Made by a program: the position numbers and the translations under genes. Of a stretch of 64,000 bases of DNA, positions 53,170 to 61,634 are shown piece after piece. This stretch comes from Escherichia coli O127:H6 str. E2348/69 (GTDB lineage Bacteria; Pseudomonadota; Gammaproteobacteria; Enterobacterales; Enterobacteriaceae), in the NCBI RefSeq assembly GCF_000026545.1, contig NC_011601.1; one strand, written 5' to 3'. Positions within the stretch are counted from its first letter, which is position 1. The number at the start of each line of letters is the position of its first letter. A model generated the notes under the pieces. That model was not told where the DNA came from and searched no databases. It worked only from the letters and a program-made list of their open reading frames with translations.

Positions 53170-53338
53170 ATCACGCCTTAGGACCGTGATGAAGCGCCCA
53201 TAAGAACAATGCTGTGTAGCCTTTGGCGGTGGCAGTTTCCCTTGATGCTGACCACCGTCACTTTTACACCAGAACGCCATTGCGATGACGTTGCGCTGTA
53301 AACCCGTAAGCCATGGAAGGCACCCTTGCTTCCATTTC

Positions 53339-53363
53339 GCCCGGTTCGTCCGGGCATTTTTTT
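53339..53363 (+). terminator. Intrinsic terminator downstream of the tRNA-like element
   Basis: GCCCGG-TTCGT-CCGGGC hairpin followed by ATTTTTTT. Confidence 0.65.
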
Positions 53364-53375
53364 AAGGTGATTAGA

Positions 53376-53807
53376 ATGAGTAAAGACCTGTTCGACATGA
53401 AGCGCCTTCCGGTTGACCGGGTTGCTGCGAGAGTTGTTGGTAAGGGCGTTGATTGGACGCCAAATAAAGTTATTCAAACTGGTGACAGCGATCTTCCGTT
53501 GCCAGTATTTCCTGCATATAACATTAAAAACCCGCAACAACGACGCGAAGTGCAAGCAATGATCGGAAGAAAGAGCGGGAGATTGACAATAATTGGTCTC
53601 GCGGTCACACAGGGAGCAAAAAATAAAGGGGCTCGCTATGTTGCTCGTTGTGTTTGCGGGATTTATACGTATCGCAGAGCAAAAAATTTCAAGAATAATT
53701 CTGATGATTTTGACGGATGCGAGCGCTGCAGAGAACTGTTGTTTCTCAAAAGGGAAGAAGTTAAACGCAGAACGGGAAAATGGGTTGACTGGAAAGAGCT
53801 GATGTAA
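53376..53807 (+). CDS. Cys-rich protein of unknown function (moron gene)
   Basis: ATG at 53376 with AAGGTGA ribosome-binding site; 143 aa containing CVCG...CERC; opposite strand to the flanking terminase and portal genes. Confidence 0.55.
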   Translation: MSKDLFDMKRLPVDRVAARVVGKGVDWTPNKVIQTGDSDLPLPVFPAYNIKNPQQRREVQAMIGRKSGRLTIIGLAVTQGAKNKGARYVARCVCGIYTYRRAKNFKNNSDDFDGCERCRELLFLKREEVKRRTGKWVDWKELM

Positions 53808-53810
53808 GAC

Positions 53811-53824
53811 TGTGACACGTCACA
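53811..53824. repeat. Palindrome TGTGACACGTCACA (copy 2)
   Basis: GTGAC-AC-GTCAC dyad directly 5' of the terminator at 53828-53852. Confidence 0.5.
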
Positions 53825-53827
53825 ACT

Positions 53828-53852
53828 AGCCCGCCGATGCGCGGGCTTTTTC
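53828..53852 (+). terminator. Intrinsic terminator after the Cys-rich ORF
   Basis: AGCCCGC-CGATGC-GCGGGCT hairpin followed by TTTTT. Confidence 0.6.
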
Positions 53853-55332
53853 ATGCATAGGGATCGTACTCTGTGAGAGCCTTGCCCTGTTGGCTCTGTT
53901 GCTGCCCATAGTTAAACTGTTTTTTGGTGACCGGCGCGGCATATGTCAGCACGTAGGCGTCGGCATCGTTCGGGGATCTGCCAAGCAACTCTTTGACTTC
54001 TTCCTTGTCCTGCAAAATCTTCCTGCTGTCCTTCAGCCTGACCTTGTACTCCGGCGCACTCAGCTCATCGGCAAGGTTCTGGCTATCCAGTTGCGCCCCA
54101 AGCTTCAGTGCGTCGCGGGCTGATTTGTACATCTCCCCGCGCTTATTGCCCATCTCGGGATCCGCGGTACCGCTTCCGAACTGAATCAGCGTCCAGTTTC
54201 GCCCCCAGTTATCGCCAACTGATTTAAGCCCGGTCCCGTACCCGTAATCGATAAACACAGCATCGGCCTGGTACTGGTCCTCGAAGTCGGCAATTATTTT
54301 GGCAAACAATACGTCGTCAGTGGTGCGTTGCCACTCCCCGAGTTTCTTACAGTGCAGTCCCTGCCGAAGATAGATAACCGCCGGGTCTTTACCCTGGTGA
54401 GACGGGTCGACGCCAAGAACTACAGCAGCGTGCTGAACCTGTGCCGGAGTAATAACCCTGCCAACAGCTGGCTGAGTCAGGCCAGACGGAATGAACTGGT
54501 TTTCAGACGCATCAGGGAAGATCCCGCGCACGCGAACCTTCACGAAGTCGCTGTCTTCGCCGTAGTCGTCCACCCACTTTTGCAGTTGCTGCTTGTTGGT
54601 GCCTTCCACGGTGCGGCTGTCAATCTGCGCGCACTTCCAGCGGTGTTTGTACTTGCGGAAACATTCACGGAAACGCCCGGTGTTACGCGTCGGGTTACCG
54701 AACGCCACCCAGATGATTTCGGTGTCTTCGTCCGTCAGCGCCCCTTCAGCTACCTCCCACACCAGATCGGCAATGTTGGATGCTTCGTCGAATACCACGA
54801 TGATGCGCTTGCGCTCGTTGTGCAGCCCTGCGAACGCCTCGGTGTTGTGTTCAGACCATGGGATTGCGTCAGCGCGCCAGCGTTTATCGTGACCGGGATC
54901 GTTGCTGTACATCGCTGTGGCGGTGCAGGTGAACCACTCTTTCGTAATAGCCAGGTTCGACCATTTGATGATTTCCGGCCATGTCTTGGTACGCAACTGA
55001 TTGTCGGTGTTGGCGGTCACCACCACCTTGCAGTCCTCGCAGGTGGACATGCCCCAGTTAATCAGCATCGAGATGAAAGCAGATTTGCCGATACCATGGC
55101 CGGATGCGCGCGCCAGCATCAAAGGCTGGTGACGCGTCGCTGGGTTCTGGAGGTGATCGCGTATCTCGCGGAAGGCGTCAGCCTGCCACTTTCTGGGACC
55201 TGTGGCGTGCGCCAGCTCTGTGCCATCCTCTCCCCACGGAAACGCGTACAGCGCATAGCCCAGCGGGTCATACGTGAACGAGGCGATATCCTCAACGAGC
55301 TGCTCTTCCGGCGACATGGCTTCGGCTGTCAT
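53851..55332 (-). CDS. Terminase large subunit
   Basis: 493-aa ORF with ATPase-like and nuclease-like regions, downstream of the small-subunit gene. Confidence 0.8.
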   Translation of the reverse strand: MTAEAMSPEEQLVEDIASFTYDPLGYALYAFPWGEDGTELAHATGPRKWQADAFREIRDHLQNPATRHQPLMLARASGHGIGKSAFISMLINWGMSTCEDCKVVVTANTDNQLRTKTWPEIIKWSNLAITKEWFTCTATAMYSNDPGHDKRWRADAIPWSEHNTEAFAGLHNERKRIIVVFDEASNIADLVWEVAEGALTDEDTEIIWVAFGNPTRNTGRFRECFRKYKHRWKCAQIDSRTVEGTNKQQLQKWVDDYGEDSDFVKVRVRGIFPDASENQFIPSGLTQPAVGRVITPAQVQHAAVVLGVDPSHQGKDPAVIYLRQGLHCKKLGEWQRTTDDVLFAKIIADFEDQYQADAVFIDYGYGTGLKSVGDNWGRNWTLIQFGSGTADPEMGNKRGEMYKSARDALKLGAQLDSQNLADELSAPEYKVRLKDSRKILQDKEEVKELLGRSPNDADAYVLTYAAPVTKKQFNYGQQQSQQGKALTEYDPYA

Positions 55333-55922
55333 TCTTCACCACCAGCCCGCTCTTTCACGCGACGGCGGGCCTTAGCCATGCGGTCGGCAATGGTGACGGT
55401 GCCGGAAACTTCCAGGCGCTCTTTGAACGCATTGACGTCGACGTGCTTACCAATCAGCTCGAGGTTCTTCACCTTGTCAGGCCATTTGATTTTCTTGAGG
55501 ATGGTCTCGATTGATGTCTCATCCATGTTCATGATGGTAGAGGACAGGTCGAAACCACTCAGTGTGGTGCGCCATATCTTCGGCCACTCGCGGATAGGCT
55601 TCAGGGTGCCATCATCGTTCAGGATGTCGATCACATCCATCTGGTCGATTTCCACCAGGCGAAGTAGCACGTAATCAGCACTGACGCGCAAACGCTTGTT
55701 GCGTTCCTCCATCAGCTCGGCGATCCGTTTCTGGATGCGCTCATCACGCATCATGACACTGGCTTTAACCGCTGCCGTATTAGGCGAGAACCCTGCGTTA
55801 ATCGCCGCCTGCGTCTGATTCTCAGGGCATTTGGTATATTCCTGCGCATAAGCCTCCTGCATCGCTGTTAGGGGCTTGTACTGAGTTGATTTTCGTTTTG
55901 GTGCTTTTGGTTCTGCGGGCAT
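55329..55922 (-). CDS. Terminase small subunit
   Basis: ORF 55329..55997; start placed at MPAEPKAPKRK (GGTGG ribosome-binding site). Confidence 0.65.
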   Translation of the reverse strand: MPAEPKAPKRKSTQYKPLTAMQEAYAQEYTKCPENQTQAAINAGFSPNTAAVKASVMMRDERIQKRIAELMEERNKRLRVSADYVLLRLVEIDQMDVIDILNDDGTLKPIREWPKIWRTTLSGFDLSSTIMNMDETSIETILKKIKWPDKVKNLELIGKHVDVNAFKERLEVSGTVTIADRMAKARRRVKERAGGEE

Positions 55923-55941
55923 TGTTACCACCGAAGTAATA

Positions 55942-55958
55942 ATTACCGTTTTGGTAAT
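55942..55958. promoter_or_regulatory. Operator-type palindrome ATTACC-N5-GGTAAT (site b)
   Basis: ATTACCGTTTTGGTAAT about 20 bp upstream of the terminase small-subunit start. Confidence 0.5.
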
Positions 55959-55963
55959 AGTAA

Positions 55964-55994
55964 CACGCAAAACAAAGCCGCCATAGTCGGCGGC
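55964..55994 (-). terminator. Intrinsic terminator at the end of the early operon
   Basis: GCCGCC-ATAGTC-GGCGGC hairpin followed on the minus strand by TTTGTTTTG. Confidence 0.55.
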
Positions 55995-56017
55995 CATTGC
56001 AATTTATTGTCGATATC

Positions 56018-56029
56018 GTGACATGTCAC
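56018..56029. repeat. Palindrome GTGACATGTCAC (copy 3)
   Basis: Perfect 12-bp palindrome overlapping the stop of the 112-aa gene, 5' of the terminator at 55964-55994. Confidence 0.5.
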
Positions 56030-56364
56030 ACTGATAATTTAGTTTCATGCCAGCCACGAGTTACCCAACATGCCGAATCACCATCGCACGGACACGACTT
56101 AACTGGTAATACATCGCCGCATTTTACGCAGCGGTTAGCACTGATTGACTTGATACGAACACGAACGCGGGCATTATCCTGACGGATAAGCAACGCGATG
56201 TACTCGCTCATATCATACGGCGCACGACCAGGGCGACGGGCGGCGCAGTTACGCGCCAGCATTTCCATTTCCTGCTCGTCGAGTTGCAATTCCATCTTGC
56301 GGTTACCGGCTTCAGCCAGACGGGCACGCTGCGCGGCTTTGCGTTCTGCTGTGGATTTAGCCAC
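56026..56364 (-). CDS. Cys-rich small protein (possible regulator), last early gene
   Basis: 112-aa ORF with GTG start and C-terminal CxxC...CxC motif. Confidence 0.5.
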   Translation of the reverse strand: MAKSTAERKAAQRARLAEAGNRKMELQLDEQEMEMLARNCAARRPGRAPYDMSEYIALLIRQDNARVRVRIKSISANRCVKCGDVLPVKSCPCDGDSACWVTRGWHETKLSV

Positions 56365-56479
56365 GGATAGCGCTCCATGCCAGATTAATTAATGATTCCC
56401 AGGCGATGTAAACCCTGATTCCTGCAGCCACGCCAAACCCGATTATCATGGAGTAAAGCAGAGCGTCGCACTTGGACAT
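56357..56479 (-). CDS. Small hydrophobic protein (40 aa)
   Basis: ATG overlaps the upstream stop (TGATG) and its stop overlaps the downstream GTG start; GGAGGTG ribosome-binding site; below the ORF-track cutoff. Confidence 0.5.
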   Translation of the reverse strand: MSKCDALLYSMIIGFGVAAGIRVYIAWESLINLAWSAIRG

Positions 56480-56901
56480 CACTTCACCTCCTGCTGTGGT
56501 GCTGCTGCTAAATGCTCGACACCTTTAGCCCAAATAGCTTTGATGGTCGTCCATGTGACAGGAACGGTGATTTCAATTCTTCCGCTGCCGTCGCAGGTTT
56601 CGCAATCATCATCACCAAAACACTCTGGGCAGTTTATAAATTTCGTTTCTGAAAACTCACCGGACAACACACCCTTTGCGCCGTTCTCAGCGGTTAGCTT
56701 CTTCGGCACTAGTACGTAACCATCCGGAGATACCGGAGAGTTGCCAGCCTGAAGCATGGCTGCGCGGAGTTGTTGTAGTTCGGCCAGCGCTAGCATTACA
56801 TCATCAATGACAGGCAACTCCATTTCATACAATTCAAGAGAATCCCTAGCCACACGGATAAGTACGCTCAGACGCTCGTCTGTTAGGTTGTTATTGGTCA
56901 T
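56479..56901 (-). CDS. Hypothetical early protein with CxxC...CxxC motif
   Basis: 140-aa ORF with overlapping start and stop codons to its neighbours. Confidence 0.5.
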   Translation of the reverse strand: MTNNNLTDERLSVLIRVARDSLELYEMELPVIDDVMLALAELQQLRAAMLQAGNSPVSPDGYVLVPKKLTAENGAKGVLSGEFSETKFINCPECFGDDDCETCDGSGRIEITVPVTWTTIKAIWAKGVEHLAAAPQQEVK

Positions 56902-57194
56902 TTTTCATCTCCTTTAAGCATGGCGGCGCGGCAGTCACATTCGATGAGTATCGGCTCTCCCCATGGCTGAACGCCGCCACTATCAGCCATTCCGGTGTCG
57001 TTACATTTAGGACAAGGTACTGGCTCCGCACTAAACGATGCAATCACTCCATCAATCACCTTCACAGCATCAGCCATTGCGTAGCCGAGATTGCCTCCGT
57101 CACTTTGTGCTGCTGCTTTGCTGAGTATTTCGCTTATCTGGTGCAGGCGATCGAGTGATACAGGACCGTTCGCCGGGTGGTTGTTAGTTGTCAT
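56898..57194 (-). CDS. Hypothetical early protein, Cys-rich
   Basis: 98-aa ORF. Confidence 0.5.
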   Translation of the reverse strand: MTTNNHPANGPVSLDRLHQISEILSKAAAQSDGGNLGYAMADAVKVIDGVIASFSAEPVPCPKCNDTGMADSGGVQPWGEPILIECDCRAAMLKGDEK

Positions 57195-57204
57195 GGGTTA
57201 GTCC

Positions 57205-57411
57205 TCAGTTGTAACCAATCGGATTAACTGCAACCAGAACGCCGTCTGCGAACAGGTCTTTAATAATGTGCTCACACGGCTCGCCTGTTTCGTACTCTTC
57301 AACCAGGTACGTGTCGCCATCTTCATTGAGATAAACAGGAAAGATGGAACCATTGATAAAGTAGGTGCCGTTGTTATCAAGAATCTTTGCTTCTGCAATT
57401 TGTGTTTTCAT
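57205..57411 (-). CDS. Hypothetical early protein
   Basis: ORF 57205..57438; start placed at MKTQIAEAK (GGAGG ribosome-binding site). Confidence 0.5.
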   Translation of the reverse strand: MKTQIAEAKILDNNGTYFINGSIFPVYLNEDGDTYLVEEYETGEPCEHIIKDLFADGVLVAVNPIGYN

Positions 57412-58025: not shown

Positions 58026-58367
58026 TCAGAACGTTTCGCAGTTCCAGCCACCACCTTTGCTTTTCGGTATTGGCTTTAGCGCTCTAAACGTGAATGGGTA
58101 CATGTCTGCGGCTACCTTGATTTTCACCCTGGCGTCATCAGTCCAGAACCCTTTCACCTCGTGCAATTCCATCTCTCCGGTGGTTAGCATCACCGCGAAG
58201 TCCGGCGTGTAGAACGTGTTATCAGCCAGCCTCAGCTTGATGCCCTCAAATTTGTACCAGGCTACGACAGTGCCGGTTATGCGCTTTAGGTGTGCCGCAT
58301 AAGCCTCTTCCGTCTTGTTCATCTGGCCTGTCTTGAGCCTTCCGAGCGCCTGCAACTGCCTTTTCAT
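58026..58367 (-). CDS. Hypothetical early protein
   Basis: 113-aa ORF with GAGAGG ribosome-binding site. Confidence 0.5.
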   Translation of the reverse strand: MKRQLQALGRLKTGQMNKTEEAYAAHLKRITGTVVAWYKFEGIKLRLADNTFYTPDFAVMLTTGEMELHEVKGFWTDDARVKIKVAADMYPFTFRALKPIPKSKGGGWNCETF

Positions 58368-59266: not shown

Positions 59267-60073
59267 TCACAGGAAATCCTCCCACGCCTCTGGACTGTTC
59301 CAGTGCGGTACGTTGTTTTCAGGTGAGGTCAGTTTGTTCTGTCTGCTGATCTGCAGACGTCTGGCAAGTTTTTGCTCCCATTGCGCATGGTGGAAAGCCT
59401 TACCCTCGGCCATCCAGTAAACCCTGAACTCTGCAAGCTCCTGCGGTGTTGGCTGGCAATCCAGGTTAATACCCTGCAGAGATGACACCCGGAGAAAATC
59501 ATCCGATGGTGACCAGAGCTCATGCATGACAAATTTCCCGAATTGCCCAAGTCCACCAGGAGGGACAAAGTTGTTAATTACGGCGTTGTTGGCGTCAGGT
59601 TCAGGCGGTACTAAACCACCAGTTTTATCGCCCCTCTCCTTCTCTTGGTTATATGACTGGTTAACTGATAGGTTCTGCATCCCGTTTTTGGGATCATTCA
59701 ACTTCCCGTTTTTGGGATCATTCAACTTCCCGTTTTTGGGTATACTCCCAATTTTGGTAACATTACCGTTTTTGGGTATACTCCCAATTTTGGTAACATT
59801 ACCGTTTTTGGGTATGTTTAAAGAGAAAACCCGGACCCTTCTTGTTGCCCCTTTTCTTTCTCCTGTATCTGAAATTAACCCCATACCGATGAGCGAAATC
59901 AGCCCTGCCTGAACCGTTTTTTTATTCAGGCTTGTGTCGGTAACCAGGCGTTCGATGCTTGGATAACACAGGTTATATTCATCGGCTCGATCAGCCATCG
60001 AGAGCAGGATGAGTTTCAGTGATGAGCTGCCCGGATTTGTTTTCCATGCCCACTCTGTTGCGTGTCTGCTCAT
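59267..60073 (-). CDS. Replication initiator O-like, with iterons inside the gene
   Basis: 268-aa ORF whose central region is encoded by tandem repeats (IPKNGNVTKIGS, KLNDPKNG); located upstream of the P-like gene. Confidence 0.65.
   Translation of the reverse strand: MSRHATEWAWKTNPGSSSLKLILLSMADRADEYNLCYPSIERLVTDTSLNKKTVQAGLISLIGMGLISDTGERKGATRRVRVFSLNIPKNGNVTKIGSIPKNGNVTKIGSIPKNGKLNDPKNGKLNDPKNGMQNLSVNQSYNQEKERGDKTGGLVPPEPDANNAVINNFVPPGGLGQFGKFVMHELWSPSDDFLRVSSLQGINLDCQPTPQELAEFRVYWMAEGKAFHHAQWEQKLARRLQISRQNKLTSPENNVPHWNSPEAWEDFL
59681..59812. repeat. Iteron array (candidate origin of replication)
   Basis: Five copies of CCGTTTTTGGG spaced 24, 24, 36 and 36 bp; the 36-bp units each contain GGTAACATTACC. 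Confidence 0.6.
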
Positions 60074-60704: not shown

Positions 60705-60772
60705 AATTATTACCTTTCTGGTGAAAAAATCAATGATTATTACCATTATGGTAACTTTACCTTTATGGTAAT
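60705..60772. promoter_or_regulatory. OR-like region: three operator palindromes plus leftward promoter
   Basis: Sites at 60709-60725, 60739-60755 and 60756-60772; minus-strand TTGATT-N17-ATAATT promoter at 60705-60733 with the first site in its spacer. Confidence 0.6.
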
Positions 60773-61479: not shown

Positions 61480-61634
61480 ATTACCAAAATGGTAATTTTT
61501 TCTCGTCATACCTATTGACACAATCACTTTTTGATCTGATTATTACCTAAAAGGTAATACAAGAGCGCATTGCTCAGGCAGAAACCACCACTTCGTGGCT
61601 TTCCTGTATCTACTAGTATTACCAAAATGGTAAT
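61480..61634. promoter_or_regulatory. OL-like region: three operator palindromes plus rightward promoter
   Basis: Sites at 61480-61496, 61542-61558 and 61618-61634; plus-strand TTGACA-N17-GATTAT promoter at 61515-61543. Confidence 0.6.

Follow-up and report, generated by a model that had tools for sequence, protein, structure and literature searches.

Late regulators of the Q type in lambdoid phages (Q-lambda, Q21 and Q82) are encoded at loci with a common layout, in which the regulator gene is followed by a DNA site, a terminator and the late genes; Q-lambda contains zinc. The ribbon-helix-helix (RHH) proteins, which include Arc/MetJ/CopG, antitoxins and MatP, display a strand-helix-helix fold, dimerize through the strand, in an antiparallel two-stranded ribbon, and recognize palindromic sites. 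The matS sequence of Escherichia coli, GTGAC[AG]N[TC]GTCAC, is a 13-bp site of the form GTGAC-RNY-GTCAC (PMC3603311). TraR is defined by a DxxDxA motif and by a CxxC-17-CxxC zinc finger (PMC9239242). The roadblock that LacI forms at its O3 operator yields a truncated, SsrA-tagged lacI transcript (PMC3711431).

The locus described here belongs to an epsilon15-like prophage (Uetakevirus) contained in a 64,000-nucleotide stretch of the genome of E. coli O127:H6 str. E2348/69 (hereafter, the window). A megablast search with positions 55300-57300 matched the Salmonella phages 65FD, 66FD and PAT1, as well as epsilon15, SPN1S, phiV10 and TL-2011b. The layout of the locus is that of the Q loci, with a candidate regulator gene, a palindromic DNA site, a terminator and the late genes in succession (Table 1), but no conserved promoter and pause site was recognised between gene and terminator, where the promoter-like matches differ in their -10 elements, and scans of the encoded protein against Pfam, PHROG and PDB gave no match to the Q family. 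The half-sites of the palindrome (GTGAC/GTCAC) are identical to those of E. coli matS, whereas the spacer measures 2 nt instead of 3 and the sites are found at the ends of phage genes rather than in the chromosomal terminus region.

Table 1. Coordinates in the window of the gp49-like gene, the palindromes and the neighbouring elements.
Feature	Position	Strand	Remarks
gp49-like gene	56026..56364	-	GTG start, 112 aa; stop codon TGA at 56026-56028; PHROG match, homologs and structure models
Upstream 41-aa ORF	56357..56482	-	8-nt overlap with the start of the gp49-like gene, GTGGCTAA
Palindrome A	56018..56029		GTGACATGTCAC; overlaps TGA 56026-56028; presumed binding site of the gp49-like protein
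Intrinsic terminator ending the early-right operon	55967..55995	-	GGCCGCCG-ACTA-TGGCGGCT then TTTGTTTTG
Prophage-repressor operator	55942-55958		ATTACCAAAACGGTAAT; annotated repressor site in epsilon15
Operator copy with 2 mismatches	55924-55940		Overlaps the terS ribosome-binding site
terS	55329..55922	-	Terminase small subunit, first late gene; ATG 55922 likely start
Palindrome C	53812..53823		GTGACACGTCAC; between the 3' ends of terL (-) and a plus-strand moron
Terminator hairpin at palindrome C	53828..53852	+	AGCCCGCCGATGCGCGGGCT then T5; immediately after palindrome C
Palindrome B	35732..35743		GTGACATGTCAC; end of the head/tail operon
Terminator at palindrome B	35704..35730	-	Strong; AGGCCGC-AATA-GCGGCCT and T-tract; directly after palindrome B
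Fourth perfect site	34795..34806		GTGACGGGTCAC; within the tailspike gene, ~490 nt past the gene start

The gp49-like gene and the predicted fold of its product

The Cys-rich 112-aa protein that the earlier note had singled out is upheld by the ORF call, by its homologs and by a structure model. The databases yielded 716 homologs, the identical protein is recorded for E. coli O127:H6, and an exhaustive profile search of the gp49-like family gave 229 clusters at 50% identity. PHROG 536 ('transcriptional regulator') matches residues 1-111 of the protein with an E-value of 1.1e-49, and the AlphaFold model of the monomer has a pLDDT of 91.8. On these grounds, the ORF is a real gene and no chance reading frame. 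Scans with Pfam and NCBIfam returned no model for the protein. PADLOC returned no match, and a role in a defence system was accordingly discarded.

The direct homologs are gp49 of epsilon15 and p55 of phiV10, at 74-88% identity (86.6% for the epsilon15 protein), and gp45 of phiKO2, at 41% identity. The epsilon15 protein is annotated as similar to gp46 of N15. No experimental characterisation of epsilon15 gp49, phiV10 p55 or phiKO2 gp45 was found in the searchable literature, and the 'regulator' label borne by the members of PHROG 536 is, as far as the records go, annotation only. The phage records with homologs name Enterobacterales and Vibrio hosts. In the Uetakevirus relatives, the gp49 homolog is likewise the last gene ahead of terS. 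The overlap between the 41-aa ORF and the gp49-like gene is of the same 8-nt type as that between gp48 and gp49 of epsilon15, and suggests translational coupling.

The model, which is a confident one, predicts an RHH domain with a Cys4 zinc module on its C-terminal side. A basic helix (residues 5-18) precedes a beta strand (21-29) and two further helices (30-42 and 52-75), after which the zinc module (79-99) and a last helix (100-107) complete the chain. Residues 21-29 form a coil in the monomer model and a strand in both copies of a tethered-dimer model (pTM 0.70), a switch that an RHH dimer would be expected to show. The C-terminal CxxC...CxC motif pointed out in the earlier note is present as C79-x2-C82 and C92-x-C94, and is joined by C99. 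Among 78 diverse full-length members drawn from the 229 clusters (alignment A2), R13, C79, C82 and C99 are invariant and R8, E54, L59 and P87 are conserved in at least 90%; the fourth cysteine, in the pattern CxxC-x6-10-C-x7-9-C, is found in 77 of the 78. Very probably, the gp49-like protein is a regulator that contains zinc and binds nucleic acids.

The strand-helix-helix arrangement, the predicted strand-mediated dimer and the palindromic site are common to the gp49-like protein and the RHH proteins. In contrast to these, the gp49-like protein has a conserved basic helix before the strand and the Cys4 zinc module at the C-terminus, and its strand residues are not conserved although the candidate site is. 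The strand positions with which RHH proteins usually read bases are variable in the family, the conserved basic residues being located in the preceding arginine-rich helix (R8, K9, R13 and R15). Curated RHH models (RHH_5, RHH_1 and RepB-RCR_reg) gave only sub-threshold matches, in 1-2 of the 78 members, and Foldseek searches of PDB and BFVD returned nothing besides RHH matches and one fragment belonging to the gp49-like family itself. Many cluster representatives are devoid of the RHH part, being either truncated at the N-terminus or reduced to the zinc module fused to an upstream gene. The latter is the case in proteins P0177, P0179, P0223, P0228, P0200 and P0240, where an upstream early gene is fused to the C-terminal zinc part only; read by eye, the N-terminal parts of these fusions look like early genes (e.g. 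Ea22-like or DUF551-like). The fusions suggest either recurrent deletions that spared the 3' end and the site, or a modular reuse of the zinc module.

MatP has in common with the gp49-like protein the RHH fold predicted for the latter, whereas the four-helix bundle and the coiled coil of MatP are absent and the zinc module is found instead. True homology to MatP is not supported: the hhalign probability is 1%, and there is neither a BLASTP alignment nor a match to the Pfam model MatP_C; the MatP homologs retrieved are near-identical and do not yield a MatP profile. At 0 mismatches, the window contains no matS site.

The zinc region was further compared with proteins of the TraR/DksA type (F TraR, lambda Orf73 and P2 Orf82). 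Residues 47-106 align with TraR and YbiI in a PDB profile search (E 0.004-0.008), and hhalign of the zinc region against the TraR type gives a probability of 79%; in Pfam scans, no DksA/TraR-type zinc-finger model matches the family, and the similarity is a weak one. A long helix, a zinc module of the form CxxCG..(L/I)P...G...C and a short C-terminal helix are common to both groups, and both are encoded in phage early operons. On the other hand, the fourth zinc ligand of the gp49-like protein is displaced with respect to the CxxC-17-CxxC of TraR, and DxxDxA is absent. The position of the fourth cysteine of TraR is mostly occupied by Thr in the gp49-like alignment, and the region aligned to the DxxDxA tip reads RRPGRAP, with no acidic motif. 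[quoted passage not shown] In the absence of the defining motifs, a functional TraR/DksA homolog was discarded, and for this reason the module is named here TraR/DksA-like and not TraR; a distant relationship with the TraR/DksA zinc finger is possible.

The palindrome on the stop codon and its other copies

The gene ends at a palindrome-plus-terminator module, as the earlier note had described: palindrome A overlaps the stop codon, and the terminator hairpin lies 22 nt further on. The consensus of the site is GTGAC-N2-GTCAC, 12 bases in length. The overlap with the stop codon is found in the window, in epsilon15, 65FD and TL-2011b and, with one mismatch, in phiV10. It is also found in a P2-like Yersinia myovirus (TGTGACGCGTCACA; protein 46% identical), in the N15-like phiKO2 (GTGACTGGTCAC) and in a Vibrio-type contig (TGTGACAGGTCACA; protein P0145, 37% identical in alignment A2), and spans phages of E. 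coli, Salmonella, Klebsiella, Yersinia and Vibrio with podo-, myo- and siphovirus types.

We assembled 163 loci from viral contigs and phage records, amounting to 2.77 Mb and encoding 131 distinct proteins. A perfect GTGAC-N2-GTCAC is located at the stop codon for 111 of the 131 and starts exactly 1 nt ahead of the stop (G-TGA-C) for 107; allowing for sites at the stop codon or up to 5 nt away, the number is 114. Over the 163 loci, perfect sites number 277 against about 2.6 expected, an enrichment of more than 100-fold. The palindrome is kept although the sequence directly 3' of it differs completely among loci, where it may be a terminator and terS, a LexA-box promoter of an antirepressor-/UmuD-like gene, or an abutting next gene. 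The earlier view that nothing in the sequence supported a regulator beyond its position and its zinc-binding character is outdated, mainly by this gene-linked palindrome.

The arms of the palindrome are fixed and its centre is free, with AT, AG, GC, GG, CT, GT, CA and TG all observed. The central dinucleotide was discarded as a determinant of specificity, in that the centres of sites A and C do not co-vary. Fixed arms around a free, non-covarying centre would fit a symmetric dimer on duplex DNA better than an RNA hairpin. A copy of the site contains the stop codon of the gene itself, with the result that the two are inherited together. A search for the palindrome sequences in a relevant context found none in the searchable literature, which makes no mention of the stop-codon-embedded operator or of the matS-like half-sites; to that extent, both are new.

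Other identities of the site were considered. The CRP consensus is TGTGA-N6-TCACA, and a CRP site is unlikely because the TGTGA arms of the palindrome are separated by a 4-nt spacer. A long-range RNA pairing, in which the fold joins the palindrome to sequence past the terminator (z = -2.5), was dropped, as by inspection it is not conserved in TL-2011b. The GTGACA within the palindrome matches the -35 consensus at 5 of 6 positions, and promoter-like calls of 9/12 with GTGACA as the -35 element were obtained for both the window and TL-2011b. The two calls have -10 elements that are not homologous, and a late promoter at the palindrome was rejected on account of this lack of conservation.

The window contains four perfect sites (starting at 56018, 53812, 35732 and 34795), where about 0.06 would be expected by chance, and none of 100 shuffled controls reached the observed count. 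Sites are present in epsilon15 and SPN1S at the same three positions as A, B and C of the window. Sites B and C sit between convergent units. Palindrome C lies 4 nt past the stop codon of the moron; the hairpin with T-tract beside it serves the moron and, seen in the late direction, the palindrome follows the hairpin. The moron adjoining site C varies among relatives and begins exactly at the palindrome edge. That of the window (53313-53807, plus strand) is a Cys-rich protein of 164 aa (PHROG 18493) encoded on the opposite strand between terL and the portal gene, with a weak HNH-like match.

Beyond the window, the stop codon of epsilon15 gp18 is also contained in a palindrome, and further copies overlap or abut the stops of unrelated ORFs of 76, 122, 114 and 284 codons. 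In L099, which represents another podovirus type, a 190-aa gene that separates the protease/scaffold gene from the capsid gene has a site on either side; a strong terminator comes after the second site, immediately ahead of the major capsid gene. Vibrio phage K308 has a site 20 nt upstream of the terS ATG. The P2-like Yersinia phage has a single site, and no terminator follows the site in this phage, in phiKO2 and in several prophage contexts. The second palindrome of phiKO2, identical to the first including its centre, lies inside repA (gp35; L004 330-341, ~37663 in the record), near a putative partition site.

The early/late boundary and the proposed function

The gp49-like gene closes the early-right operon, which encodes a Cro-like repressor, an O-like initiator, a P-like helicase loader, a Holliday-junction resolvase and several unknowns. 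Its designation in the earlier note as the last early gene before the terminase agrees with this arrangement, in which terS follows the terminator. On the minus strand, the TGA in the palindrome is succeeded by 22 nt, the hairpin, an operator, a degenerate operator over the ribosome-binding site, and terS. The terminator, a strong one, comprises an 8-bp GC-rich hairpin (55995-55976) and the tract UUUGUUUUG, and a rho-independent terminator is annotated at the equivalent position of epsilon15. The start of terS is most likely ATG 55922 and not the upstream ATG 55997, which falls within the terminator. Neither scanning nor reading by eye revealed a consensus sigma-70 promoter in the interval from the terminator to terS; a weak -10-like AATTAT upstream of terS is overlapped by an operator. 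PHROG scans of the right-operon ORFs revealed no Q, N, Ogr-like or other antiterminator or late activator.

The late activator or antiterminator that the earlier note had proposed is to be judged in two parts. The predicted zinc-containing regulator, its placement and the lack of any other late regulator in the right operon by PHROG speak in its favour, and as a hypothesis for the epsilon15-like group the role is partly supported. The protein has, however, no homology to a known late activator or antiterminator, with no Ogr_Delta or Q match, and a family-wide function of this kind is unsupported, since the Yersinia phage has an Ogr beside its homolog, and phiKO2 the Q-like gp38. The P2-like Yersinia phage (vB_YenM_31.17) carries its own Ogr-like ORF in addition to the gp49 homolog. 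This unannotated ORF of 71 aa (L011 32431-32646, plus strand) looks, judged by eye, like the late activator Ogr of P2; the record annotates an opposite-strand 92-aa CDS (gp44), which has no Pfam match and looks spurious. An Ogr/Delta-type late activator was rejected, given the absence of an Ogr_Delta Pfam match and the coexistence with an Ogr-like ORF. In phiKO2, gp45 coexists with the lambda-Q-like gp38, for which there is a separate late promoter. The homolog of SPN1S (L167 38348-38656) has its first ~25 codons replaced, with loss of the conserved R8/R13 helix, in what looks like a deletion joining a ParB-like frame; the lineage is viable, which also speaks against a family-wide late-activator role, and all three palindromes are intact.

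From the linkage of gene and site and from the predicted fold, we consider it probable that the gp49-like protein forms a zinc-containing RHH dimer and has GTGAC-N2-GTCAC as its binding site. It is a credible, though unproven, controller of transcription across the early/late boundary. Our preferred reading of its action, put forward tentatively and as one that may well be wrong, is that of a factor which is loaded at DNA and enables RNA polymerase to cross terminators marked by the palindrome. The protein would be produced as the last early product, its dimer would bind the palindromes and act on RNA polymerase crossing them, and the adjacent terminator would then be read through; late-gene transcription would thereby be coupled to completion of the early operon, with a Q-like logic and an unrelated fold. 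Binding of the protein to the site, contact with RNA polymerase (possibly via the TraR/DksA-like module) and read-through rather than block are the steps that we infer. Read-through is favoured because the protein is a lytic-only last early product and the sites precede terminators on the path to the late genes, because terS is without a recognisable promoter and the right operon without another detected late regulator, and because of the likeness of the zinc module to an RNA polymerase-binding one. Against it count the homologs beside Ogr or the Q-like gp38, the sites with no terminator downstream, and the position of palindrome C after the hairpin in the late direction. The viability of SPN1S, which keeps its sites without the conserved N-terminal basic helix, the many representatives without RHH, the variable strand residues and the absence of the TraR hallmarks weigh on the same side, and the operator-overlapped AATTAT upstream of terS could be an independent late promoter.

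The placement of the site on the stop codon would be better explained by a roadblock or insulator with self-limitation, in which a dimer on the palindrome blocks RNA polymerase both ways and reinforces the ends of transcription units, while polymerase stalled at the gene's own stop codon leaves a stop-less mRNA and causes negative autoregulation. The analogy is with LacI, whose O3 operator, at the 3' end of its own gene as palindrome A is, can truncate the transcript and limit synthesis; LacI belongs to an unrelated protein family, and self-limitation of the gp49-like protein would follow by analogy. The sites of 114 of the 131 proteins, within 5 nt of the stop, have the geometry for truncated, stop-less transcripts. 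Copies at the stops of unrelated genes (epsilon15 gp18 and the four ORFs cited above) and the run from operator to palindrome in the checkable units of the window are consistent with such a block. The location of sites B and C between convergent units, the portability of the module to any downstream context, even one without a terminator, and the dispensability seen in SPN1S, which fits an accessory role, are likewise better explained by it. Nevertheless, a block would shut off terS at site A and the capsid gene in L099, unless promoters there went unrecognised; it would be redundant, since intrinsic terminators already adjoin the sites, and a lytic-only protein would be more useful as an antiterminator than as a terminator. 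We regard a roadblock, the main rival to read-through, as possible but somewhat unlikely. An operator-type regulator of the next downstream promoter, which in many prophages is the SOS (LexA-box) promoter of an antirepressor-/UmuD-like gene, would account for two unrelated contexts in which 6-7 bp separate the end of the palindrome from a downstream TTGAC -35 element, itself followed by a LexA box, for the LexA-box promoter that also lies downstream in the Yersinia phage, and for the -35-like GTGACA with its 9/12 scanner calls. Such regulation is improbable, however, as the next promoter is 6 to >80 nt away or absent, the promoter called in the window would initiate at the foot of the terminator, its -10 element has no homologous counterpart in TL-2011b, and the location of sites B and C is the 3' end of genes and not a promoter.

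Transcription would not be the target if the protein were a MatP-like organiser bridging matS-like sites, or took part in another DNA transaction in which the palindromes are junctions for cassette-swap recombination. The Enterobacterales and Vibrio hosts of the phage records, the variable morons and downstream modules that begin at the palindrome edge, the 190-aa gene of L099 flanked by two sites and the second identical site inside repA of phiKO2 are in line with this. But homology to MatP is missing by hhalign, BLASTP and MatP_C, the spacer is 2 nt and not 3, and the P2-like phage with its single site would have nothing to bridge; as for recombination, the protein is without a catalytic recombination domain, and ordinary homologous recombination would be expected to leave breakpoints at the border of a conserved functional element. 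We assign these DNA transactions a low probability. The arginine-rich N-terminal helix, the transcription of the sites at mRNA 3' ends beside terminator hairpins, and a G-to-T change in phiV10 that still permits a G-U pair could also be taken to indicate an RNA-level element, with the palindrome as a boxB/nut-like hairpin or a 3'-end stabiliser bound by the N-terminus. This is very improbable: the sequence of the two arms is conserved and compensatory changes are absent, while the would-be loop is free to vary, the stem would have only 5 bp, and the perfect twofold symmetry of the DNA together with an RHH dimer fits recognition of double-stranded DNA.

Returning to the read-through factor, it is conceivable, though rather unlikely, that the gp49 family represents a fourth, structurally unrelated class of DNA-loaded antiterminators, in which an RHH DNA-binding dimer is combined with a zinc module derived from TraR/DksA, the latter for engaging RNA polymerase. 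The action of such a class would take place at portable cassettes made of a palindrome and a terminator. The epsilon15/phiV10 (Uetakevirus) group would then have its missing late-gene switch, and the tolerance of morons with their own terminators within late operons would be explained. Our literature search found no paper on late-gene control in Uetakevirus/epsilon15-like phages, which include O157 typing phages and serotype-converting Salmonella phages. The small protein, the 12-bp site with its more than 100-fold enrichment and the defined terminators provide a direct experimental handle. Read-through, if true, would add a new structural class to the antiterminators; block, if true, would amount to a terminator from nature that is portable, depends on a protein and limits itself, and that could serve as a genetic part. 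The stop-codon operator with matS-like half-sites can be used to annotate the family and its sites in hundreds of prophages.

Further features of the prophage

The repressor operator ATTACC-N5-GGTAAT occurs in the window in 18 copies with up to 2 mismatches, against 1.7 expected, at positions 35348, 52594, 55924-55958, 58370, 58432, 60709-60772 and 61480-61634. The checkable transcription units of the window have an operator at the start and a GTGAC-N2-GTCAC palindrome at the end. Two of the operators lie over ribosome-binding sites, namely those of the gene at 58026-58367 and of terS.

A LexA-like box, CTGTATGTTTTATACAG (~35395-35415), with a spacer of 9 nt and not 8, is located upstream of a plus-strand 92-aa ORF (35423-35701). 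The ORF has a weak anti-repressor PHROG match (E=1e-7) and, in view of this match and of the upstream box, may encode an SOS-controlled antirepressor. Finally, a 36-bp direct repeat (59736-59787) is found within the gene of the O-like replication initiator, where it gives rise to the protein repeat PKNGNVTKIGSI; the repeat probably corresponds to the iterons of the origin.
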